A stretch of DNA of 64,000 nt, from NCBI GenBank assembly GCA_965204505.1, contig CBDBFB010000004.1, positions 107,449 through 171,448 of the forward strand, given 5' to 3'. The position numbers and the translations under genes were made by a program. Shown in pieces: positions 4,048 through 55,296 of this stretch. Source of the DNA: an uncultured Candidatus Binatia bacterium (lineage in GTDB: Bacteria; Desulfobacterota; Binatia; UBA9968; JAJDTQ01). The notes below the pieces were generated by a model, which had not been told where the DNA came from, did no database searches, and worked only from the letters and a program-made list of their open reading frames with translations. Positions within the stretch are counted from its first letter, which is position 1. Each line of letters begins with the position of its first letter.

Positions 4048-4188
4048 TCCTCCGCACATCTGCTCCACGCCGCGAGGAGCCCGGGCAGCCGGTCGAAGTC
4101 AGGCCGCGGGCGCGGCGCGGGAGGTTTTCCTTCATCCCACGCCGCGTCCCGGCACTCTCACGCAATTCGATCCAGGAGGGAGAGATCC

Positions 4189-7100
4189 ATGCTCGACGCC
4201 CATACGGCGGCGGATGCGTCCGCGCGCCTTCCCGTTCCCCGCACCCTTCCTTCCGTCCCCGCCGCCCCGGGCCCCGAGCCTTCCGCCCATGACGCGCTGT
4301 TCACCGCCGCCACAACCCTGTTGCCGGTCCTGGAGGCCGGCCGGGCGCTCGACGCCCCGACCCTGCGGGACGCCATGACACGCGCCTTCGGCGCAAGCGA
4401 TGCCCAAGGCGCCTGGGTCTGGAAAGACGCCTACGAGGCCGCCGAGGCCGCGGTCGTGCTGTTCATCCGCCGCCATGGCCGGGCCATGCGCCGCCACGCC
4501 GGAGCCGGTCCGGAAGGACCCCTCGCCATGCTCAGGATGCTGGAGGCCGTGGCCGCGCTGGAGCCGTCCCACACGAAGCGCTCGGAAGAGCAGGTGCGCC
4601 TGCAGCAGTTCTCGACGCCCCTGCCGCTGGCCTATGCGGCGTTGCAGGCCGCGGCGATCCGGCCGGGAGACGTCGTGCTGGAGCCGTCGGCGGGCACCGG
4701 CATGCTGGCGGTGATGGCGGAATGCGCACTCGGGAGCCGGGCTGCGGGGAACCTCCATCTGAACGAGATCGCGGACGTCCGCCGCGCCCTCCTGTGCCGC
4801 CTGTTCCCCGAGACCCTGGTCACCAGCGTGAACGCGGAGAACGTCGCCGACCGCTTGCCCGGCGCCCGGCCCACCGTTGTCATCATGAACCCGCCGTTCT
4901 CCGCGACGCCGGGCGTCCACCGCATCCGCCACGACGCCGACCTCCGGCACCTGCGCTCCGCTTTCTCCATGCTGCCGCCGGGCGGCCGGCTCGTGGCCGT
5001 CACCTCGGCCAACTGCATTCCGGGCGATTCCGACTGGGATGCCGCCTTCGGACTCCTCGATCCGCCCGCCCGCGTCGTCTTCACCATGGCCGTGGACGGC
5101 CGCGTCTACGCGCGCCGGGGCACCGGCTTCGACACCAGGCTCACCGTGCTCGACCGCACGGACCAGGCCGGCGTCGACGTCGATCCCGGCGCCCGCGCCG
5201 AGAACGCCGCCGAGCTGCTCGACGCCGTCATCGCCGGGGTTCCGCCCCGGATGCCGGTGGAAGTACGAACCATCGGGGCAGCGCCCGACCGGGACCTCTT
5301 CGGCCACGCGGCCATGCCGCGCCCGTCGAAGCAAAAGACCGCGTCCACCGTATCCGCGCCAGCGCATGACTGGGGATCGGTGTCCGAGCTGATCGTGGAG
5401 ACCGGCACGGCGGAGGTTGCCGCAGACGCCGGCAACTCCGTCTCCGGACCCTACGAACCCTGGCGGCCGGGCGCCTTCCGGATTCCGGGCGCAACCGCGC
5501 ATCCGACGCCCCTGGTGCAGTCCGCGGCAATGGCCGCCGTCCCGCATCCGGCGCCATCCTACCGCCCCTTGCTGCCGGAACGCGTCGTGGCGGACGGCCT
5601 CCTGTCCGACGCCCAGCTCGAAAGCGTCGTGCTGGCGGGCCAGGCCCACGAGGGCCATCTCGCGGCGAGCTACCGCATCGGCTCCGGCTGGGAGACCGTC
5701 CAGCGCTGCGGCGACGAGGACCAGGACGAGGCCGCCCTCACCGACGAAGGCGAGACCCTGTCGGTGCCGGTCCGCTTCCGCCGCGGCTGGATGCTGGGCG
5801 ACGGCACCGGCTGCGGCAAGGGACGCCAGGTGGCGGCGATCATCCTCGACGGCTGGCTCCGCGGCCGGAAGCGCGCGCTTTGGCTGAGCCAGTCCGACAA
5901 GCTCCTGGAAGACGCGCGCCGCGACTGGACCGCCCTGGGCGGACGCGAGGACGACGTGGTCCCCCTCGGCAACTTCCGCCAGGGGGACGAGATCCCCCTC
6001 TCCACCGGCATCCTGTTCACGACCTACGCCACGCTGCGCTCGCCGTCCCGCCAGGGGCGGGCCTCACGGCTTGACCAGATCGTAAGCTGGCTCGCCGGAG
6101 GACCCGACGAGGACGACCGCCATGCCTTCGACGGCGCCATCGTCTTCGACGAGGCCCACGCCATGGCCAACGCCGCCGGCGGCAAGGGCGCGCGCGGCGA
6201 CGTGAAGCCGTCCGCCCAGGGACGCGCAGGGCTGCGTTTGCAGAACGCGCTACCCGACGCCCGGATCACCTACGTGTCGGCCACCGGCGCCACCACCGTG
6301 CCCGGACTGGCCTACGCCGGCCGTCTGGGGCTGTGGGCAGCCGGCGAAACGCCGTTCGAGACGCGGATCGACTTCGTGTCGGCCATGGAAGCCGGCGGCG
6401 TCGCCGCCATGGAGGTGGTCGCAAGGGACCTGAAGGCGCTCGGCCTGTATCAGGCCCGCGCACTGGCCTACCACGGCGTCGAGGTGGACATCCTCGTCCA
6501 CGAGCTCTCCGAGGAACAGCGGCGTATCTACGATTCCTATGCAGGCGCGTTCAAGGTCATCCACGCCAACATCGAAGCAGCGCTGGAGGCCACGGGCATC
6601 ATGCAGGAGGGTTCCACTCTCAACAAGAACGCCAAGTCCGCCGCGCTGAGCGCCTTCGAGAGCACCAAGCAGCGCTTCTTCGGCCATCTCCTGACGGCCA
6701 TGAAGTGCCCTTCGCTGATCCGCGCCATCCAGGCAGATCTCGACTCCGGCCGGTCCGCCGTCATCCAGCTCGTATCCACGGGCGAGGCGCTGATGGAGCG
6801 GCGCATCGCCGAGATACCGGCGTCGGAATGGGACGATCTCGGCATCGACCTGACGCCCCGCGAGGCCGTCCTCGACTTCCTGGCCCACGCCTTTCCCGTG
6901 CAGTTGCAGGAACCCTACACCGACGGCGACGGGAACCTGATGAGCCGTCCCGCGGTCGACGCCGAGGGCCATCCGGTCCTCTGCCAGGAAGCGCTCGCGC
7001 AGCGCGACGCGCTCCTGGAGCAACTCGCGTCCCTGCCGCCGGTGCCCTCGGCCCTGGACCAGGTGGTCCAGCACTTCGGCCACGAGGCCGTGGCGGAGGT

Positions 7101-10650: not shown

Positions 10651-12155
10651 TGGATTGACCCTGTCAAGTTGCTACAGGGTAGTTGAGATCCTCCCCCCTG
10701 GAAGTGTCGGGGTTGGGGCGCGGCCGACGTTCGCGACGGTGGATCACTCTGATATCCGTGGGTTGGTTACCACCTGACTTCACTTCGTCGCGGAGCTGCC
10801 TCACTCTGAAAACGTGGGTTCACCAGTCCTTTTGGGACCGGCCCCTCACAGAACGGCCGAGGGTTCTCCTCACCGGCCGACCACGCCCCGATCCCGACAC
10901 TCCTCTTGCTTCATGTACTCACCGGACCGATACGCGAGCTCAAGCCGCGGCGCGGGACGCGTGCGGCAGGCCGTTGACCTCGCGTGCGATGGCCCAGATG
11001 AATCCGACCAACTCGCGCGCCACCGCCGTGGTGACGTAGCACTTGTTCTTGCCGACCTGATACAGATGCAGGTAGCGACCGCACAGCCGCTTTTGCGCTG
11101 CCCAGGCCAGCGCCTGCACCGCCTCCGGCGCCACGGACGCCTTCTGCCTCATGTACTTGGTCTTGCGTGCCGGGAAGCGATAGCCCCAGGCCGACTCCAC
11201 CAGCAGCCGGCGTACATGGCCGTTGCCGGCCTTGGTGATCGCACCCGGGCGCCGCCGGTCTCCCGAAGAGCGTTCGCTCGGCACTAGGCCGAGGAAACTC
11301 ATCAACTGCCGCGGCGAGTCGAAGCGGGTGAGATCGCCCAGTTCGGCCAGCACCGTGATCGCCGTGATCCGGTTCACGCCCCGCAGACTGATCAACGCCT
11401 CGACCGTCGGACGTAGCGACCACGAAGCCGCCGCCTCAAGCATCTGCTGCTCCACACCATCCAGGCGAGCCTGCGCCTGCTGCACCGTGTCGACGTATTC
11501 CTGGAACACCACCTGCTGAACCGGTTGCTCAAACGCCTGCTGCTCCAACCAGCCAAAATACGGCTTCGTCCAACGGCAACGCCCCGGGAACACCCGCTCG
11601 TGGCGCAACAAGAAAGCGCTCAGCCGCTGCCGGGCCTTCTGCTGTATCGCCAGCATGTCCTCGCGTGCGCGCGTCAGATCCCGCATCGCCTCCTGATCCT
11701 CGTCCGGCACCCACACTGGCGTCAGATCGCCCGAACGGTGCAGGCGCGCCAACGCCACGGCGTCGCGGCGATCCGTCTTCACCCGATCGCCCGGCTTGCG
11801 CGGAATCAGGCTCGGCGCCACCACCGCGCAGGCGTGACCGCTTTCCACGATCTCCCGGTACACCCCGTATCCGCATGGCCCGGCCTCGTAACAGAAGCTC
11901 AGCAGCTTCCCATCCGGGCTCAGCCGGCCGATCAAACGCCGGAGCGACCCGCGTTGATTGCGAATCTCGCCCCGGTACACCGGATCCTGGCGGCCCGGTT
12001 CCGCGATCGCAACCGCAATGGAGTCCTTGTGAACGTCCAGTCCTACGTACGCGCTATACTCCGTCATGGCCTGCCCTCCTCAATAGTGGCTCTTTCTCAC
12101 GGTTCCAGCGTCGAGCATAAACCACCTCGCCCGAGTCGAGGACCAGGTCAATCCA
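10651..12155 (-). mobile_element. IS110-family insertion sequence (~1.5 kb) with short terminal inverted repeats
   Basis: tggattgaccctg at 10651-10663 is the near-perfect reverse complement of caggtcaatcca at 12144-12155. The pair flanks the transposase ORF. The element sits between the ssb stop and a terminator hairpin. Confidence 0.55.
10940..12067 (-). CDS. IS110-family (DEDD) transposase
   Basis: N-terminus MTEYSAYVGLDVHKDSIAVAI is the IS110 RuvC-like DEDD_Tnp signature. 375 aa. Confidence 0.9.
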   Translation of the reverse strand: MTEYSAYVGLDVHKDSIAVAIAEPGRQDPVYRGEIRNQRGSLRRLIGRLSPDGKLLSFCYEAGPCGYGVYREIVESGHACAVVAPSLIPRKPGDRVKTDRRDAVALARLHRSGDLTPVWVPDEDQEAMRDLTRAREDMLAIQQKARQRLSAFLLRHERVFPGRCRWTKPYFGWLEQQAFEQPVQQVVFQEYVDTVQQAQARLDGVEQQMLEAAASWSLRPTVEALISLRGVNRITAITVLAELGDLTRFDSPRQLMSFLGLVPSERSSGDRRRPGAITKAGNGHVRRLLVESAWGYRFPARKTKYMRQKASVAPEAVQALAWAAQKRLCGRYLHLYQVGKNKCYVTTAVARELVGFIWAIAREVNGLPHASRAAA

Positions 12156-12335: not shown

Positions 12336-13251
12336 ATGCACTACGGTCCGTCCCCAGCCTCCGCGGTCGCCGCGGCGCTTGCAGCGCGCGCCGAAGAGGT
12401 CTGCCAGCGCTACCTCCCCCACGGCCGCCGCCAGGGCCGCTACTGGGTCGCGGGCGACATCGACGGCGCCCGCGGCCGCTCCCTCTTCGTCCGCCTCCAC
12501 GGCCCGGGCGCGCCCGGGAAGTGGACCGACGCGGCCGTGGGCAGCCACGGCGACCTGCTCGACATCATCCGCCACCGCACGGGCGCGCCGACGCTCCGCG
12601 CGGCGCTTGCCGAAGCGCGCGCCTTCCTCGCCCTGCCGGCTTCGCCGGCCAAGGGCGATGCAGGCGACTACGACGCCGCCGAAGCGGCGCGGCGCCTGTG
12701 GCGGGGATGCCGCGCCATCGACGGCACCCACGCGGAGAAGTACCTGCTCGCCCGGGGGCTCGCGCGCTGCCGGTTCCCGGCGCTGCGCTTCCACCCCGAG
12801 CTTCGCTACCGCGAAGGCTCCTCCGTCATCCGCCTCCCGGCGCTAGTCGCCGCCGTGACCGGCGACGACGGCGCCGTCTTCGGCGTGCACCGCACCTGGC
12901 TCGATCCCCGCCGTCCGGCCAAGGCCGGCGTCGCCTCGCCCCGAAAGGCCCTCGGCGACATCCGCGGCCGTGCCGTGCGCTTCGGCATGCCCGCCGGCGA
13001 TGTCGCTACGCTCCTCGTCGGCGAGGGCATCGAGACCGTGCTGTCGCTGGTCACCGCCGTGCCCGACATCTCCGCGGCCGCAGCCCTCTCCGCCGGCAGT
13101 CTCGGCTCCTTCTCGCCCCCGCCCGCCTGCCGCCGCCTCGTCATCGCCCGCGACAACGACTTCGAGGGCGCATGGGCCGCCGAACGCCTCGCCCGGCGCT
13201 GCGCGCGGGCGGGCGTCGAGGCCGCGGTCATCGTCCCCCAGGGCGGAGACT
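12336..13251 (+). CDS. toprim-domain DNA primase, exon 1 (interrupted by an antisense group II intron)
   Basis: Toprim-like body ...LLVGEGIETVLS...ARDNDFEGAWAAE... The frame runs to ...VIVPQGGD, after which the sequence becomes intron. Confidence 0.7.
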
Positions 13252-13308
13252 ACTGCGGTAGGAACGCCGGTTGCCCGGCGCCCCCCCGCTCAGATCCGGA
13301 CGTGCCCG

Positions 13309-16300
13309 CTAAGGCATCCGGCTCCTCCCTTGGGTACCGCCCCGCATGGCGCTGACGGCAAATCGTTTGTCCGGCCACGGGTGTCGGATTTCCAGCCTGG
13401 GCCAGTGAGCCACCACATGGCGTGCGATGTCGGCCCAGTTCGAGCGGTCCTTCTGCGACCGTCGGCGTAGCGTTCGCAGCCACAGCCGCTTCAGGCGGGT
13501 GGCAAAACGGTAGAGGTATCGGTAGCTGGTCGGGACCGCATAGTAGTTGAGCCATCCGTCGAGCACCTTCCCCAGCCATCTCGCCATTGCTTTGGGTTTG
13601 CAATGCATCCGTCTGCGTAACCCCTCCTTGATCCGCTTCAGTGTCCGGCTCATCCGTTTCGCAACCGGCTTGCGCCCCACCTGAAAGCGCCCCAGTCTGT
13701 TCTCCGTGCAGTAGTGCGTGAAGCCCAGGAAGTCCAAGGTCTCCGGTCTGCCCTGCCCTCGTTGCCGATGGCTTTTGACGGCAAACCGCCCGAACTCAAT
13801 GAGTCGGGTCTTGTCGGGGTGCATTGCCAGTTCAAAACTCTCGAACCGCTCCTTTACGGCACTCAGGAAGCGCTCCGCGTCCCGCTTGTGCTGAAAACCC
13901 ACCACGAGTCGAGTAGCCGAGGGGAATTTCACCCCTCGGCCCTCCCAGAACCGGACGTGAGACTCTCGCCTCATCCGGCTCCTACCCTCCAGCCTCAGAC
14001 ACCGGCTCCTCCCATCTCTGGTTGGCCTCCATCCTTGGCCAGAGGGTCGGGTCCCTTCGCTCCGCCCGCATTGCCGGGCTTCATCGCTAATACGGACCCG
14101 TCCGTCCCTGTGCTCCGCTTCGGTACTCGGCTCCTTGCGGTTCTTCCGCTTGGAGGTCTCCCTTGGCATCGGAGCTCCAGGTTCCCACGTTCCGCACAAG
14201 AGCCTCTCGCTGGTCTCACGCCGCCTTCATGCCGGTCGCCGCTCGGCCAGTCAGCAGGCACCCTCCGAGCTCCATCCCAGACCAACGACTGGAGCCTGGT
14301 TTCGGCGACATCTTTACGCTTTCGACACGTCATCAACGGTTCACTTTCGTTCGTCTTACCAGCGCACACCTGACGGGTGATTCCCGCCTTTTCCGCAACG
14401 CTCACCACCCCGGTCGTTGAACCGGAGCAGCTTGCGGTGGTTTGGACCCTGGTCCTGCAACCCGAGTCCGAGGGGCCTTCCCTCATCTCCTGTGCAGCAA
14501 GGCGCTTCAACTCGGCTCTGCTACGTCATCAGAACCTCCTCTCGTCGCCGTCGTGGCGCACCGTCATCGGCGTACCGCACGATGACGGTGTCGCCTCTGA
14601 CCTCGCGGCTGCGCCATTTCTTCTGGAACCACAGGTCGAGGACGTAGTGCAGGTAGACGTTCGCCAATACCGGCGAAACCACCGAGCCTTGAGGCGTTCC
14701 CCGCAGATCGTCCCGCCACTCTCCAGCTTCGTCGGGTAGGACGCTGGCGCGCGCATCCTTAGGTGGAGGCTTGTCCGCTCCCGCTCTTTCGATCGCGGGT
14801 GGGTGCGCAGTTCCACCATAGACCACGTTTCCAGCATCCCCCCTGAAATTCCGTACGTCCGGTTTTCCCGGGTACGGCTTCAAGCACCAGGCACCCCTTC
14901 AGGAGTTCGGTACGGCGTCTTCCGCGATACCCGCCACGGTTAAGGCTGACCCGGCCATGCCCGTGCAGACACCCGCGTTTACGCCGTCCTTCGACCGTGC
15001 CGCATATCGCCGTGGAGGCCGGTTTCTGTGCACCGGCAGACCAGCCATACGCCACACGGTCACCTAGGCCCAGAGGTCCTCGCTCAGGGCCGGTTATGTT
15101 GTCCAGCCCGTCAACGCTTAATCGACCTCATCCGCCAGTCAGGAGGACTCCGCGTCCTTTCCCGTTATCCGGTTATGGACGCGGTCCTTGACATTCAAGG
15201 GTCACAACATCCTGTCTGTCCTCCTCACCTTCCGGACTTTCACCGCTGAACTTTCCCGGATTGCCGCCGTCTGTACGCCGGGGGACCCGATGCGTGCATT
15301 CCTCAGTTCCTTCCGCATCGGTTCTAGCCATCGGGACGTCATGAATCCCTTGGCATCCACCAATTACCCCCACAAGTCAGCTTCGATGCGGGGAACGCCG
15401 TTTTCGACGCTTCGGACGACTGTTCGCTTTCGCTACGGCCCTCCGGTTTGCTCGCCCTCCAACTGACCTGGACCAGAAGTGAACAATCTCTCACCCGGCC
15501 CACAAGGGCTTTTACTTCCCTGCTTTACAGGCAGCAGGTCGCCCTGTTGCCTGCGGGATATGACTACGACGCCAAACTGAGAATTGCGCCGGCGGGACTT
15601 TCGCCCGCGAGTTCAGCAGCTAGTCTCGCTGCACCATGACGCCGGCGCTCAACCACTTGATGATGAGCCTGATGACCCGCTTGTCCCCGATGCGGTGCTC
15701 CAGGAACCGGATCAGCCAGTCCCTTGACACGTTGTCGAAGAATGCGCGGATGTCACAATCCACCACCCAGTTGATCTTGCGCCGTTTTAACCCGACCGTG
15801 AGCGCATCGAGCGCATTGTGCGGTCCACGCCCTGGCCGGAACCCGTAGCTGAACCCCAGGAACTCCGCCTCATAGATCGGCGTCAGGATTATCTCCGTCA
15901 CCGCCTTCTGGACTATCTTGTCCTCGATGGCCGCGACGCCGAGCGGTCGTGTGCCGCCATCAGGCTTCGGTATGTTCACCCGCCTTGATGGCGTCGCCCG
16001 GTACGCTCCCGAGTGCACGCGGTCGTGAAGGTCGGCCAATCGGCCTTCCAGCCCTTCCTCGTACTCCCGCCACGTCACGCCGTCCGCGCCTGCCGCAGCG
16101 TCTTTCTTCAGTTCGAAGAATGCCCAGCGCAGCGCATCAACCGTGACATGGTGAAGAAGCGCCGTCAGACGCTCCCGTGGTTCCCGTTGAACGAATTGCC
16201 GTATCCGGTCAGCCGCCTGTGTCACGCTTTCCCGGTCCTGCGCCCGGCGCGTGCTTTGGCTTCCCGGATTCCCCTTGGGCTCGGTCCTTCGCTCCATCGA

Positions 16301-16381
16301 CTCCGCCGGGACCACGGCCCCTTTGTTCGCCGACTTCTCAGCTAATATGACCGAGTCTGACTTCTCCATGCCGTGCATCAT
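13309..16381 (-). CDS. group II intron-encoded reverse transcriptase/maturase (RT0-7 plus X, no En domain), in three segments split by nested introns
   Basis: Segments: 16381..15635 (RT0-3, ending ...IKWLSAGVM), 14730..14562 (EAGEWRDDLRGTPQGSVVSPVLANVYLH...RYADD), 13907..13309 (VVVGFQHKRDAERF...ETLDFLGFTHY...LNYYAVP...RHPW). The joins are in frame once introns C and B are removed. Confidence 0.8.
13908..14561 (-). mobile_element. nested ORF-less group II intron B (~654 nt) between RT-motif YADD and VVGF of the intron A RT gene
   Basis: 5' GUGCGCCACGACGG follows ...UACGCCGAUGACG. A canonical 34-nt domain V, GAGCCGGAUGAGGCGAGAGUCUCACGUCCGGUUC, with AGC triad, GAGA tetraloop and AC bulge, is at complement 13948-13981. 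Domain VI GGGCCGAGGGGUGAAAUUCCCCUCGGCUACUCGAC ends at 13908. Confidence 0.7.
14731..15634 (-). mobile_element. nested ORF-less group II intron C (~904 nt) inside the intron A RT gene
   Basis: Starts GUGCAGCGAGACUAGCUG right after ...GGCGUCAUG. It ends ...CGUCCUACCCGAC. The exon join gives AGVM|EAGEW. A domain V-like hairpin CCGUAC-CCGG-GAAAA-CCGG-AC-GUACGG is at complement ~14847-14882. Confidence 0.6.
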
Positions 16382-16735
16382 CGGTTACGGATTCCTCCTT
16401 TCTTCAGCGACCCCGCCACGACAGCGGGATGGCATGGAGACCTCCCAGGTCCCGGTGCTGTGCGTACGTACGTGCCTGGGTTCTTAGACACCGCGGGATT
16501 CCAGCCCCCCTCGCCATATCGGTGAGCTGGATGCTGCCTTCGGCCCATTGAAAAGCCTCGGCATCCCGGACACGTCTCTTTCGGTGCTCAATAGCCCCGC
16601 CCGCACGCGCCCCTGTCAACGCTTAACCCCCATCCTCACGGATGACGGCCCATGACTCGGGGTGGAAGTGGTGGCTTGCCTTTCTTTCCCGCCGGACTTT
16701 CACCGGCTGCACTGGCACCAGTTTGCCTGGCGCAC

Positions 16736-16830
16736 TCAACGACGACCTCGCTTCGCTCGGCGCCGATGTCCTCGCCGCAAGGTTCGCTCCGCTCTTCCGC
16801 TCCGCTGGAGCCGGAGAGGAGCGGGCCTGA
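16736..16830 (+). CDS. toprim primase, displaced 3' segment (restores ...GGDFNDDLASLGADVLAARF...)
   Basis: Joining 13251 to 16736 gives gga gac ttc aac gac gac ctc. This is the canonical toprim C-terminal DFNDxL motif, in frame to the stop at 16830. Confidence 0.65.
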
Positions 16831-51110: not shown

Positions 51111-51563
51111 TCGGTCGCGAACTCAGTGTCCACGGGGTGGTGGAGAAGGGGCTGGGGGTTGTGCGATGGACGTGGCGAGGGGACTTGCAGGAGCGAGCTC
51201 TGGAAGTGCCGCTATGGATGTTCGACCATCTGACCTGTCTGTCTGTGCGTCTTCGGAAGCGTCCGCAAGTCGATCTGGCAGCGCTTGATGCACCGAAGCG
51301 GAAACCCGTGCGCGACGCGGGGGCTTAGTCGCGAAAGTAACCGGAGATTGCACGCGGGGTAGCGATGCGGTGAAGTGACGGTGGCTGGGGGAGTCGAGGC
51401 CGGTTGCTCCCACTGGTGTGCACAGGCACCCGTACTGAAGCATGGCCCGAACCACGATCGGCTTCAGTCACTGATGGCGCGGCTTGGCCGCGACCTCGTT
51501 CGAGAGATTGAGATTTTGCCGTGTGGTTCCTCCCCGGCACACCACAAGGCGGGAGGACTTGGC

Positions 51564-52976
51564 ATGCCACGGAAGAGCAAGAGGACGGAGCGTCTCAGGG
51601 TGGTGAATCCGAACTGCGCGGGGATCGACATCGGCAAGGACCGTCACTACGTGGCGGTGGATCCGGAGCGCTGTGCAGAGCCGGTCCGGTCGTTTGATGG
51701 CTTCACACGGGATCTGAAAGCGATGGCGGCATGGCTGAGATCGTGTGGGGTGAAGAAGGTGGCGATGGAATCGACCTCGGTGTACTGGATCCCGGTGTAC
51801 GAGGTGCTGGAGCGCGCGGGCTTCGAGGTGATGCTGGTGCCGCCGCGGATGACGAAGCAAATTGCCGGGCGCAAGAGCGACGTACTCGATTGCCAGTGGA
51901 TCTGGCAGTTGCTGTCCTACGGCCTTCTGCGGGGCGCGTTCCGGCCCGGGGATGCGATCTGCCCGCTCCGCTCCTACGTGCGCCAGACGAAGCGGCTGAT
52001 CGAGGACCGCGCGCGTTGCGTGCAGCACATGCAGAAGGCTCTGACCGAGATGAACATCCGGCTGGACTCGGTGCTCGCCGAGATCATGGGACAGACCGGA
52101 CAGAAGATCCTGCGGGCGATCATAGGCGGCGAGCGCGACGCGCAACGTCTGGCGTCGTTCCGGGACCGGCGGGTCAAGGCCAGCGGTGACACGATCGCCG
52201 CAAGCCTGGAGGGCACCTGGCGCGAGGAGCACCTGTTCGCGCTGGAGCAGGCCATGCAGCGCTACGACTTCCTCGAACAGCAGATCGAGGACTGCCAGGC
52301 GCAGATCGCGGCGCAGATCGAGGGCCTGACGCCGCCAGGCGGCAGCCCATCCGGGGACGAAGGCGCTGGTGGCGGATCGGCCGGCGAAGGCTGGAAGACG
52401 CTGTCGGGCTCCAGCGGCAGGAAGCCCGCGGCCGGCGACAGGGCCTTGACCATGGCGCTGCACCAGATGATGGGCGTCAACCTCACTGCGATCCCGGCCG
52501 TCGGCATCGGAACCGTCCTGACCATCGCCTCGGAGATCGGTCCGGACTTCTCCGCCTTCCCTTCCGCCAAGCACTTCTGCTCCTGGATGGGGGTGGCGCC
52601 GGGGACCCGGATCAGCGGCGGCAAGCCATTGCCGGGCCGAGCGCCCAAGGTAGTCAACCCGGTAGGGCAGGCGCTTCGGATGGCTGCCGTGGCAGCGCGA
52701 AGGAGCCAGACCTTCATCGGCGCCAAACACCGCGCCCGTCTCGCCCGCAAGGACGCGGCCGTCGCCATCACCGCAACCGCGCGCGAGCTCGCCTGCCTCA
52801 TCTACCTGATGGTGACGCGGGGCGAGGAATACGTCGAGAAGGGCATGGACGCCTATGAGAAGCGGCGCATCGATCGCACCTTCGCCAACCTCAACCGAAA
52901 GGCCCGTACTCTCGGATACCGGCTCGTCCAGGCCGTCGTCCAAGAAGTACCCAACGGCGCTCCAGAAGCAGCCTAG
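51564..52976 (+). CDS. IS110-family transposase (IS1111-like subgroup, 470 aa)
   Basis: GGGAGGA RBS. ...NCAGIDIGKDRHYVAV...VAMESTSVYW... DEDD_Tnp N-domain. C-terminal ...GVAPGTRISGGK... transposase_20-like domain. Confidence 0.85.
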   Translation: MPRKSKRTERLRVVNPNCAGIDIGKDRHYVAVDPERCAEPVRSFDGFTRDLKAMAAWLRSCGVKKVAMESTSVYWIPVYEVLERAGFEVMLVPPRMTKQIAGRKSDVLDCQWIWQLLSYGLLRGAFRPGDAICPLRSYVRQTKRLIEDRARCVQHMQKALTEMNIRLDSVLAEIMGQTGQKILRAIIGGERDAQRLASFRDRRVKASGDTIAASLEGTWREEHLFALEQAMQRYDFLEQQIEDCQAQIAAQIEGLTPPGGSPSGDEGAGGGSAGEGWKTLSGSSGRKPAAGDRALTMALHQMMGVNLTAIPAVGIGTVLTIASEIGPDFSAFPSAKHFCSWMGVAPGTRISGGKPLPGRAPKVVNPVGQALRMAAVAARRSQTFIGAKHRARLARKDAAVAITATARELACLIYLMVTRGEEYVEKGMDAYEKRRIDRTFANLNRKARTLGYRLVQAVVQEVPNGAPEAA

Positions 52977-52984
52977 TTACTCGA

Positions 52985-54965
52985 GTGCGCCGTGCAAGGC
53001 GCCATCCCTTAGCGGGTTGCGAGACCCGCCCGGCAACTGTCGCTCCAGCCGGTAGCAGTCGGAGCGGACGATGGAGGTAACGACATGGTTTGAAGCACTC
53101 CGATGAAACGGGCCGCCTTGGGCGGCTCAGCGACCATGCGGGCCGCAACGCGAGTGAACGCCGAGCAGGCCTCGAAACTGGCAACGCGGAAGCCGACCCG
53201 CCTCGAGTACGGGAAAGGCTGCCATCGGCCGGGAAGCGAGCGACACACGCACCGGCCGGTTCCGCCGGGGTATTGGCGGCGGCACGCATGGAAGAAGGGG
53301 ATGGACGCAACACGGGAAGCCCCGGCGGTGGCGTAGCACGCGCCAACCGACAACCCGCGAGGGATGGGTCGGGCCGTTCGGGGTGGCGGAGAGGTCCGTA
53401 GTACCGCGGAAGCCGGGTAATGCCGGTGGAGGGAAGGGGCCTTGGTTCGAGAGCAGCGTTTGGAAGGAGGAAGGGACATGGGGACTGGCGAGAGCCTATC
53501 CGACCCGGAAAAGGTCCGGAGACTCCAGACGGCGCTACATGCGAAAGCGAAGGAGGCCCCGGGCTTTCGGTTCTACTCACTGAGCGACAAGGTGTGGCGC
53601 GCCGACGTGATGGCGGTCGCCTGGCAGGAGGTCCGCCGCAATGGCGGAGCCGCCGGGGTGGACGGTCAGACGGTAGCGGACATCGAGGCGCAAGGCGTGG
53701 AGCGGTGGCTTGGGGAACTGAGGCGGGACCTGAAGGCGGGAACCTATCGGCCCGAGGCGGTCCGGCAGGTTCTCATACCAAAGAAGCAGCGTGGGAAGTT
53801 GCGGCCCCTGGGCATTCCCTGCATACGGGACAGGGTGGCGCAGACGGCGGCGATGCTAGTGCTGTCGCCGATCTTCGAGGCCGACCTGCAACCGGAACAG
53901 TATGCCTACAGGCTGGGCCGGAGCGCGAATGATGCTGTCAGGCGCGTACACCGGCTGTTGAACACGGGCCACCGCGAGGTGGTGGACGCGGATCTAACGG
54001 ACTACTTCGGCCAGATTCCGCACGCCGAACTGCTCAAGTCCGTCGCCCGGCGCGTGAGCGACGGGCGGATGCTGGGCTGGGTTAAGGCGTGGCTTGAGAT
54101 GGCGGTCGAAGAAGACGACGGCAAGGGCGGCAAACGCCGTACGAACCGGGCGCGTCGCGAGAGGAAGGGAACCCCTCAAGGTTCTCCGATCTCCCCGTTG
54201 CTCTCCAACATCTACATGCGCCGCTTCATACTGGGCTGGAAGGTGCTGGGCCATGCCCGGCGCTTCAAGGCGGAAGTCGTCAACTATGCCGACGACCTGG
54301 TTGTGCTCGGCAAATCGTCGTCAGCGGAAATGCTGGCGGTGGTCGAGAACCTGATGGAACGGCTGAAACTGACGGTCAATGCCGAGAAGACCCGATGCTG
54401 CCGGGCGCCGGAGGACTCGTTTGAGTTCCTTGGCTATCGGATTGGACGCAACTACCGCCCGCACGGGAAGGGGAGCTACATCGGCACCCGGCCCAGCAAG
54501 GCGAGCGTCCAGAGCATCTGCCGCAGGATTAGCGAACTAACGGAACCCCGCTATGGGCTCCTGGACCAGGAGGTCGTGGCCGAACGGCTCAATCGACTGA
54601 TGCTCGGGTGGTCAAAGTACTTCATCCTGGGCCAGGTCGAGCCGGCCTATGCCGCGATCGACAGGCACGCTATCAAGCGGCTGCTCCAGTGGCGGCGTCG
54701 CAAGCACAAGGTGAGAGCCCGTAATTATGTGCAATACGGGTACGAGCAGCTCTGGACTGAGCACGGTCTCATCCGCCTTGCACCGCGAGCGACACGCTTT
54801 CCGTGGGCGAAGGCATGATCTCGTCCGAGAGCCGTGTGCGGGAAAACCGCACGCACGGTTCGATGAGCGGGGACTGGAAACGCGGCCAAGGGAGCCGGAC
54901 TGAGGCCCGGAGCGAAAGCGACGGACAAGCCACCGGACCCTAAAGCTGGCGCGCCAGTCCTCGAC
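52985..54965 (+). mobile_element. group II intron D (~2 kb) inserted 8 nt after the IS110-family transposase stop
   Basis: 5' GUGCGCCGUGCAAGG at 52985. Canonical domain V GAGCCGUGUGCGGGAAAACCGCACGCACGGUUC at 54828-54860. Putative 3' end ...GCGCGCCAGUCCUCGAC at about 54965. The 3'-end coordinate is uncertain by about 5 nt. Confidence 0.75.
53478..54818 (+). CDS. group II intron reverse transcriptase/maturase (no En domain)
   Basis: GGAGGA RBS. RT motifs ...LIPKKQRGKLRPLGIPCIRDRVAQ..., ...GTPQGSPISPLLSNIYM..., ...VVNYADDLVVLG..., X domain ...LMLGWSKYF... The stop lies just before domain V. Confidence 0.85.
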   Translation: MGTGESLSDPEKVRRLQTALHAKAKEAPGFRFYSLSDKVWRADVMAVAWQEVRRNGGAAGVDGQTVADIEAQGVERWLGELRRDLKAGTYRPEAVRQVLIPKKQRGKLRPLGIPCIRDRVAQTAAMLVLSPIFEADLQPEQYAYRLGRSANDAVRRVHRLLNTGHREVVDADLTDYFGQIPHAELLKSVARRVSDGRMLGWVKAWLEMAVEEDDGKGGKRRTNRARRERKGTPQGSPISPLLSNIYMRRFILGWKVLGHARRFKAEVVNYADDLVVLGKSSSAEMLAVVENLMERLKLTVNAEKTRCCRAPEDSFEFLGYRIGRNYRPHGKGSYIGTRPSKASVQSICRRISELTEPRYGLLDQEVVAERLNRLMLGWSKYFILGQVEPAYAAIDRHAIKRLLQWRRRKHKVRARNYVQYGYEQLWTEHGLIRLAPRATRFPWAKA

Positions 54966-55296
54966 TCTACGAGAGGGTTTGCTGGATGAGATTCCGAGGC
55001 CTGAGGGCACCTGCCGGTTCTTTGATCGCGCCCGATTCGGTTACAGACGTACCATCTGTCAACCAGGATCAGGGAGGCGATCATGGGTTCATCTCACAAG
55101 GAACCAAGGCAACTGGTATTGTTCGGTTCCGCGAGGCGGGACGGTTCCGGGAACACGCCGCCATGGCGGAGTCTCCCGGCTCAGACACGGCAGAAGGCCG
55201 TCGGTCTGCTGGCAAGGTTGTTCATCGAACATTGCCGGACGCCAGCGACGGACGTGACCGCACAGACCGCCGGTCCTCGACCAAGGGAGGACAGTG

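Follow-up and report, generated by a model that had tools for sequence, protein, structure and literature searches.

Bacterial twintrons, in which one intron lies within another, are rare, and in the published bacterial cases that we know of either the intron-encoded protein (IEP) can still be translated or it is a host gene that is interrupted. Here we analyzed a stretch of 64,000 nucleotides from an uncultured Candidatus Binatia bacterium (assembly GCA_965204505.1, contig CBDBFB010000004.1, positions 107,449 to 171,448; referred to as the window), in which the reverse transcriptase (RT) gene of a group II intron, intron A, is interrupted by two further group II introns, B and C. The original prediction, made from the letters of this window, had placed A at complement 13252-16735, B at complement 14731-15634 and C at complement 13908-14561, and these coordinates proved to be exact to the base. 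We consider it probable (about 0.8) that the element is a genuine three-component twintron, in which A acquired B and C by reverse splicing guided by the pairing of exon-binding and intron-binding sites (EBS-IBS), with functional consequences that we infer. The structural and evolutionary account of this three-intron arrangement is highly probable; the idea that this particular copy still yields RT by sequential splicing is tentative.

Twintrons are established for Euglena plastids, Methanosarcina acetivorans, T. elongatus, Trichodesmium and Wolbachia (PMC4424553, PMC2882425, PMC4649490, PMC8919778). The founding concept of an intron within an intron, with sequential excision, came from the Euglena chloroplast twintrons (Copertino and Hallick, via PMC4424553). 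These are organellar and consist of degenerate group II/III introns in housekeeping genes, without the retromobility logic that the present element has. In M. acetivorans, introns without an open reading frame (ORF) as well as RT-encoding introns home site-specifically into the sequences or ORFs of other introns (Dai and Zimmerly 2003, via PMC4424553). The resulting nests are multi-level, with up to five stacked introns, involve related partners and put no host gene at stake, and the ORF-less members presumably depend on help in trans (PMC4424553). Compared through this review description, the locus in the window is similar in that introns home into intron ORFs; unlike the archaeal system it is bacterial, and it combines two inner types (Rfam models RF02003 and RF01999) at separate sites in one RT ORF of the RF02005 type.

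In T. elongatus (Mohr et al. 2010, PMC2882425), the ORF of the TeI4 IEP has the ORF-less intron TeI3 inserted between its first two ATGs. The inner intron originated by ORF deletion, and its mobilization in trans by related IEPs was shown experimentally and read as a proliferation strategy (PMC2882425). Both cases are bacterial and have an ORF-less inner intron in the ORF of the outer IEP, but the T. elongatus IEP can be translated without the inner intron being spliced and the partners are close relatives, whereas here the RT core is cut and the partners belong to unrelated classes. The insertions lie after RT domain 3 and at the YADD active site, so that, unlike in T. elongatus, no functional RT would be made without splicing. 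For the twintron of Trichodesmium erythraeum, sequential splicing in vivo was demonstrated (Pfreundt and Hess 2015, PMC4649490). It is likewise a bacterial group II twintron; it is inserted in sense orientation in a conserved host protein gene with the inner intron in the outer ribozyme, while the present element is antisense and has its inner introns in the IEP ORF. Waldern et al. (2020, PMC7306698) report that a group II intron in bacteria most commonly has another group II intron as its neighbor. Theirs is a neighborhood-level statistic, and in the parts of the paper that were searched there is no description of site-level homing to YADD or to the junction between domains V and VI (J5/6), or of a non-autonomous family.

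Twintrons and homing into intron ORFs are hence already known. Distinct here is that the catalytic core of a single RT is cut by two non-autonomous introns that are unrelated to each other, that the lineage of C is aimed at RT YADD codons generally, and that the family of B is abundant and has a non-canonical domain V (DV). No report of a YADD-targeting lineage or of a family with a G.A DV was found in the literature, in a search outside of which lay Dai and Zimmerly 2003 and Simon et al. 2008.

Intron A is complete as a group II intron and, with B and C counted in, measures 3484 nt. Read from 16735 to 13252 on the minus strand, it starts with GUGCG and ends with CCUACCGCAGU. The search with Rfam models in Infernal that had been suggested as a check was carried out and identified RF02005 in A, RF02003 in B and RF01999 together with RF00029 in C, all above the gathering threshold. 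The RF02005 (group-II-D1D4-6) match in A covers the full length of the model (184 bits, 16479-16700) and lies in the 5′ ribozyme portion, which extends from domain I (DI) to DIVa (16382-16735, minus strand). DV and DVI of A (13252-13326, minus strand) were matched by RF00029 in a permissive scan with a sub-gathering score of 32 bits (E = 0.0012), and the end of this match coincides exactly with position 13252. The branch-point region in DVI reads CUA^CCGCAGU, with the bulged A 7-8 nt from the 3′ end. A putative EBS1 loop, UCAAUG (16546-16551), would be complementary to the 5′ exon CGUUGA at 6/6 positions including one G.U pair. J5/6 of A has the sequence GUCCGGAUCUG followed by AG, which is the type used by most copies of the B family, and is unoccupied here.

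The RT gene of A consists of three pieces on the minus strand. Exon 1 (15635-16381, ORF start at 16381; 100% in tblastn) comprises codons 1-249 and ends with KWLSAGVM. Exon 2 (14562-14730; joined ORF and tblastn) comprises codons 250-305 and nt 1 of codon 306, from EAGEWRDD to VRYADD. Exon 3 (13312-13907; joined ORF) comprises codons 306-504 with RT domains 5-7 and domain X and resumes with VVGFQHKRD; the stop codon (13309-13311) is located within the DV of A. In silico excision of B and C resulted in a continuous ORF of 504 codons, in which AGVM is joined to EAGEWRDD and RYADD to VVVGFQ. The exact restoration of the frame, which had been forecast, was thereby confirmed, also by the empty sites described below; the forecast length of about 490 amino acids was too short, the protein having 504. 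The joined protein, RT-A, matched RVT_1 with E = 9e-35 and GIIM with 20.3 bits, below the cutoff of 23, and a Pfam search of all 504 residues found no endonuclease (En) domain, in line with the assignment as an RT-X protein without En.

A database comparison revealed thousands of homologues of RT-A. The best 120 are intact proteins of 488-570 amino acids with 77-88% identity and 92-100% coverage. Against intact RTs of 500-504 amino acids, annotated as group II RT/maturase, the alignment is full-length and gap-free over both junctions (78-89% identity, many RTs at 84-89%), and in an alignment with seven homologues there are zero gaps at the junctions and the columns AGVM-E and YADD-x-VVGFQ are invariant. 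Uninterrupted A-like copies are also available as DNA. In the loci L238, L239 and L241, which are 88-90% identical to A, the B site is empty and reads GGCGTCATG^GAAGATGG, and the C site is empty and reads GCCGATGATT^TCGTGGTGGG. The sole local difference from these relatives concerns the two bases preceding C, GAC G here versus GAT T, with the consequence F306 to V. The three RT pieces are one gene: all are colinear with a single RT lineage, as the prediction had assumed.

Both inner introns lack an ORF, lie on the same strand as A and have exact termini, and each was assigned to a class by an Rfam model. They also begin with GUGCR as claimed, namely GUGCA in B and GUGCG in C. Intron B (14731-15634, minus strand, 904 nt) extends from GUGCA to CCUACCCGAC. 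RF02003 (D1D4-4) matched over its full length with 54.8 bits (15428-15610), above gathering, and tblastn revealed no RT similarity within B. The EBS1 of B, CAUGACG, is located in a hairpin loop (15337-15343, minus strand) and pairs at 7/7 positions with the 5′ exon CGUCAUG. J5/6 and an extended DVI (14731-14846, minus strand) contain the stem GGAUGCUGG/CCAGCGUCC and the branch-point A at 14737 in the region CUA^CCCGAC. This architecture is common to the L243 copies described below, to the Omnitrophota copy L014, the locus of which contains the full DVI, and to intron D, a separate intron of the window (52985-54970, plus strand).

The original prediction had staked its case on covariance models finding DV in both inner introns, in B near complement 14847-14882. 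For C this was borne out (RF00029, 60.3 bits), but in B no Rfam DV match was obtained, even at E <= 10. A real variant hairpin is nevertheless present in B at 14847-14880 (minus strand), recognized by covariation and by a covariance model (CM) of the family, with a 5-nt loop, GAAAA. It contains the AGC triad with C-G and A-U pairs and a 2-nt bulge, and the triad G faces A(A) and not U; in an alignment with the DV of intron D, A-A occupies the position of the UU that usually forms pairs with the A and G of the triad. The failure of RF00029 is explained by this lineage-specific variant with A opposite the triad G. The DV helix is 98% paired over 23 distinct family sequences, with double (compensatory) changes at 3 pairs, while slid controls gave 8-38%. 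A family CM built without B scored B with 60.1 bits (E = 9e-14), the L243 copies with 43 bits and the canonical DV of D with 23 bits. The fragment L004 on a Bradyrhizobium plasmid is colinear with B nt 480-904 and has the same DV feature, and its upper stem shows a compensatory change. Since the search pattern itself contained the nine bases GUACGGAAU, their invariance in the retrieved set is by construction. We also considered that the hairpin of B is the decayed DV of a dead copy. This reading was rejected, because 106 stretches from several phyla have this 3′ strand, GUACGGAAU, in common, and it is further countered by the L243 relatives, which were found independently and read GUACGGAUUU, with A still opposite the triad G and the extra A absent.

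A 5-nt DV loop instead of a GNRA tetraloop together with a small ribozyme has been described for IIE/IIF introns (PMC3753933). With their GAAAA loops, B and D are IIE/IIF-like by this feature. Two other origins of B were dismissed: it is not a deletion derivative of intron D, as the likeness is limited to the DV/DVI and RF02003 regions, and not an ad hoc composite of two introns, as B nt 1-810 can be aligned colinearly with about 72 copies of the family.

Intron C (13908-14561, minus strand, 654 nt; RF01999 and RF00029) extends from GUGCG to GCUACUCGAC. RF01999 (D1D4-2) matched over its full length with 112.6 bits (14368-14484), above gathering. The RF00029 match to DV and DVI (13908-13983, minus strand; branch-point A at 13914, region CUA^CUCGAC) is likewise full-length and terminates exactly at the proposed 3′ splice site. 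The EBS1 of C, AGUCGUU (14284-14290, minus strand), pairs at 6/7 positions with the 5′ exon GAUGACG. Relatives with 76% identity are present in Sinorhizobium and Rhizobium plasmids as ORF-containing introns of 1.86 kb. The 5′ 520 nt of C are colinear with the ORF-containing rhizobial relatives via DI-DIII and DIVa with the ribosome-binding site, and then C jumps directly to DV; this colinearity marks C as an ORF-deletion derivative that retains the usual maturase-binding region.

The relatives of C share its target. Six relatives were compared for EBS1: five, of high as well as low GC content, have the identical AGUCGUU with covarying flanking stems, and in the sixth, L231, it was not found. 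The low-GC copies carrying it come from IMG/VR, the others are rhizobial. The 5′ exons of the lineage read GAUGACG (here), GAUGACU, GACGAUU and GAUGAUU, which corresponds to GAY-GAY-N. As the G residues of EBS1 face the third positions of both Asp codons, either C or U can pair at these positions, and EBS1 thus pairs with GAY-GAY-U. Insertion takes place between nt 1 and 2 of the codon following YADD, and the target in RT genes consists of the Asp codons TAYGCNGAYGAY followed by a variable -1 base. In the Sinorhizobium meliloti plasmid pMl1 (L001), a C relative occupies the same position in a different, En-containing RT gene, and its in silico excision yields an RT-X-En ORF of 563 amino acids in which LIRYADD is joined to FVVFCE. 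The loci L244, L245 and L246 show the full arrangement at YADD+1 with ORF-containing inner introns, and L242 (from a TARA sample) consists of a decayed A-class exon 2 fused to a C-like intron that is 88% identical to C.

A wider sample was obtained with a read-through query, the ORF spanning the end of B, exon 2 and the start of C, for which the best 120 matches were considered. Among these, 34 are short RT fragments ending with YADD(C/G/S/R)APRRRREE..M. The tail APRRRR is the translation of N+GUGCGCCACGA, so that the reading frame of these fragments runs on into a C-lineage intron. At -1, 21 of the 34 insertions have T, 11 have G, and one each has A and C. The idea that the G at -1 of C is a disabling mutation is weakened by these 11 other insertions with the same base. 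From these comparisons we assign C to a lineage whose natural homing site is the coding sequence of the RT active site.

One host of this lineage is not a group II RT. In the IMG/VR loci L236 and L237 (minus strand; L236 4205), an ORF-containing C-lineage intron of 1.87 kb is inserted one nt past the YADD codons of a retron RT, and the host spliced in silico has 354 amino acids and was identified by PADLOC as retron RT_II-A (E = 6e-53). Here a group II intron resides in the RT of a defense system.

For B, the family pattern had 106 matching stretches in the genome collection. The sources are metagenome-assembled genomes from soil (Alphaproteobacteria, Acidobacteriaceae, Omnitrophota, Planctomycetota and others) and Bradyrhizobium isolates, and a single genome often carries many copies. 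In soil bacteria, the family has at least 100 ORF-less members of about 820-900 nt. Full length is reached by about 72 ORF-less copies, which are 797-868 nt long; with B they share the start GUGCA, and the family ends read GUGCAGCGARGCUAGCUGCC ... AUCCUACCCGAC. In every one of these copies the EBS1 loop covaries with the last 6-7 nt of the 5′ exon, as in the EBS1/exon pairs CAGAUCC/GGAUCUG, GGUCAAA/UUUGACC, GCUAAAG/CUUUAGC, CUACUC/GAGUAG and GUUCCC/GGGAAC. This is strong comparative evidence for movement of the B family by reverse splicing and for a cognate site occupied by B. Among the 72 full-length copies, at least 26 lie within other group II introns: 17 at J5/6, between CCGGAUCUG and UGCGGGG, five in DI of A-class-like introns and four in DVI of another type. 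The long DVI of B is shared with the Omnitrophota and L243 copies. A comparison of the 15-mer GTCATGGTGCAGCGA with metagenome contigs was uninformative on absence: among the matches listed (at least 120), all are due to chance and none belongs to the B family.

An independent composite of A and B was identified at L243 (1553-7836), where three A-class introns are arranged head to tail without a spacer. One is ORF-deleted (about 630 nt) and two are full copies, each with a B-type intron. These B-type introns, 889 and 908 nt long, differ from each other only in that one has a 19-nt duplication, and they have 76% identity with B. They are inserted within the RT ORF 9 codons upstream of the B site, between RVIGL and IESWLDAGVM, and their EBS1 reads CAGUCU versus the exon GGGCUG. 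Without the insert, the RT ORF of copy 2 runs without interruption for about 510 codons, and copy 1 has a later frameshift. As the site differs from that of B, B-type introns must have entered A-class RT genes at least twice. From these sequences, a composite of A and B can evidently exist in more than one copy. The tandem suggests either that the intron end regenerates the homing site, which was then entered repeatedly, or that a tandem duplication took place.

Some further features of the B family were noted. The loci L007, L015, L058 and L089 appear to be three-level nests, with a B-family intron at J5/6 of a C-like intron; the DV of this C-like intron is almost identical to that of C, and its 3′ flank resembles a D-type extended DVI (GUGUGGAAACGGAGC). 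Sub-families of B seem to have distinct targets outside introns (flanks of L005-L110). One of these targets, UUUGACC followed by CAnnnnGnnCAU, looks like the antisense of a gene start, and in an Acidobacteriaceae sub-family insertion follows a GGCUUUAGC repeat. B itself holds two GAAAGUCC modules, corresponding to two DI-like 5′ modules, and this is a family-wide feature. B nt 369-717 (14918-15266, minus strand) weakly resembles the first 335 nt of A in colinear order, with the motifs GGCAA.C.GG...GGUGAAAGUCCGG...UUAAGCGUUGAC.GG...GAUAUG.CG...GUGGCGGG.UCGC.GAAGA shared between the middle of B and A-class introns. This internal A-like module could be an ancient twintron fusion or a mimicry of the maturase-binding region of A-class introns.

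The target of A is a gene with DUF7146 and Toprim_3 domains (Pfam on the rejoined protein). Its 5′ part is located at 12336-13251 and its 3′ part, with FNDDLASLGADVL, at 16736-16830, both on the plus strand. Removal of 13252-16735 from the plus strand restores this ORF, joining PQGGD to FNDDLASLG. As A lies on the strand opposite to the host gene, splicing cannot repair the latter. The nearest relative of A (P0001, locus L238) is antisense in the same kind of gene, and in both cases DUF4326 and SSB genes adjoin. Because of this shared gene kind, orientation and DUF4326...Toprim...SSB neighborhood, the position appears to be a homing site of the A lineage and not an accident.

A possible helper is encoded by the intact group II intron D (RF02003 at 53010-53153, RF00029 at 54827-54970). 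Its RT (53442-54818, 458 amino acids) is the only intact RT within the window. The intron shares its RNA type (RF02003) with B, and its DVI is extended, to about 100 nt; its similarity to B is distant. An IS110-family transposase gene (51375-52976) precedes the intron, with a few bases between its stop codon and the intron start, and an EBS1-like sequence, UCGAGUA, matches the 5′ exon UACUCGA. The protein, RT-D, is a candidate maturase for B in trans.

Considering these data, we propose that A, an En-less, RT/maturase-encoding intron of the D1-D4-6 type, inserted antisense at its cognate site in the Toprim/DUF7146 gene, in a mobile-element region. Then B and C, two unrelated ORF-less introns, would have reverse-spliced into the RT ORF of A in domain IV, either at the DNA level or possibly into A RNA; we infer this order of events. 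Arrival by reverse splicing, as opposed to random insertion, follows from the pairing of EBS1 of both B and C with the exon just upstream. Since A, B and C are on one strand, a transcript of A would carry B and C as spliceable introns, and both would have to be removed before the 504-amino-acid RT is translated from this copy. B and C have no ORFs and hence need maturases in trans; B may be served by RT-D or an A-class RT, and C by an unlinked C-class RT. Domain IV is peripheral in the group II ribozyme. With B and C in this peripheral domain, the ribozyme of A is uninterrupted, so that an A-class RT from elsewhere could splice or mobilize A. The claim that the mobility of A depends on splicing of its parasites is plausible only for RT made from this copy.

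Several points weigh against a twintron that is functional throughout. B matches 74% of the near-invariant columns of its family and is thus a divergent member of uncertain competence. The triad G.U in DV of group II introns is near-universal; the G.A of B departs from it, and the activity of B is only predicted. EBS1 of C is mismatched at -1, and tblastn detected no C-class RT within the window. Upstream of A no sigma-70-like promoter was found, and no terminator either, and A is antisense to its host gene. The exact composite of A, B and C was found nowhere else in the searches made; no record of the exact 253-amino-acid N-terminal fragment was found, and the junction pattern of KWLxAGVM followed by GTGYR had 0 matches in the contigs of the genome collection. 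RT-A has 504 codons without stop or frameshift and a dN/dS of 0.25 versus L239 (dS 0.29), a value that averages the periods before and after the insertions, so that current constraint is not demonstrable from it. Together, the lesion-free ORF and this ratio would be compatible with continued constraint and are no proof of it.

The strongest alternative, to which we assign somewhat less than an even chance, about the same as to productive sequential splicing of this copy, is that B and C knocked out the RT of A and that nothing is spliced any more, the whole being decaying mobile DNA in which ORF lesions have not yet appeared. The antisense position of A in a disrupted gene without a promoter-like site upstream fits with this view, as does the lack of own maturases in B and C combined with the absence of a C-class RT from the window. 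Near relatives are often damaged, by an insertion sequence (IS) in L238, the frameshift in L243 copy 1 and the truncation in L242, and bacterial group II introns commonly occupy and inactivate other mobile elements (PMC7306698). A fossil, however, would not be expected to retain 504 codons without a stop or frameshift, ribozyme motifs that are all intact and EBS1-exon pairings of 7/7 in B and 6/7 in C. In addition, L243 contains two copies of a composite of A and B that differ by the 19-nt duplication, one with a restorable ORF, which indicates that such composites can still proliferate.

It is also conceivable, though unlikely, that RTs from other loci of the genome serve A, B and C alike, in which case the twintron is one large non-autonomous intron and its ORF is irrelevant. 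The position of B and C in domain IV leaves the catalytic core of A intact, and A-class RTs are very abundant and closely similar. Bacterial ORF-less introns almost always accompany related ORF-containing ones (PMC4424553, PMC3245105), and the IEPs of T. elongatus mobilize ORF-less and twintron partners in trans (PMC2882425). No second A-class RT was found within the window, however, and an intact ORF with a dN/dS of 0.25 is unexpected for an ORF that has long been dispensable, an argument that is weak. That repeated intron sequences were mis-joined to a false nesting is very improbable: although most relatives come from metagenome assemblies, where multi-copy introns assemble poorly, the junctions here are base-exact intron termini restoring a codon-perfect ORF, the upstream exon of each inner intron pairs with that intron's own EBS1, and similar nestings are seen again in finished plasmids (L001) as well as independent assemblies (L243, L244, L246).

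If the three-intron twintron is what it appears to be, the RT output of this copy would be contingent on splicing of its hyperparasites, which would make it a natural system for hierarchical control of retroelements. Most of the interest lies in the two lineage-level leads, which bear on the proliferation and loss of autonomy of group II introns. Autonomy loss of group II introns is a proposed route to spliceosomal introns. We tentatively suggest, at odds slightly below even, a so far unrecognized retroelement-hunting layer of introns, in which the C lineage is directed to YADD+1 by a wobble-tolerant EBS1 and the high-copy B family combines retargeting through altered EBS1 sequences and preferential nesting in other introns (at J5/6, DI, DVI or the RT ORF) with a new G.A variant of the DV active site. 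If this is true, the C lineage could invade any RT gene; the observed hosts are several group II classes and a retron type II-A RT. By targeting the most conserved RT codons, it can also disrupt retron defense genes. If both lineages are active, the RT of the host intron would be made only when the hyperparasites splice, a built-in control hierarchy among selfish RNAs. As the DV of the B family escapes RF00029 and B has no ORF, surveys based on RF00029 or RT ORFs would undercount this family.

A few observations concern the surroundings. In L004, the 5′-truncated B-family fragment (4055-4255) has a cobalamin riboswitch (RF00174, 136.7 bits) a short way downstream, which is probably a coincidence. 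For positions 17000-41000 of the window (24 kb), no near match was found in the plasmid collection. Two ORFs that read as IS110-family transposases, assigned from translation alone, flank the region at 10940-12067 (minus strand) and 51375-52976 (plus strand), the latter being the gene next to intron D.

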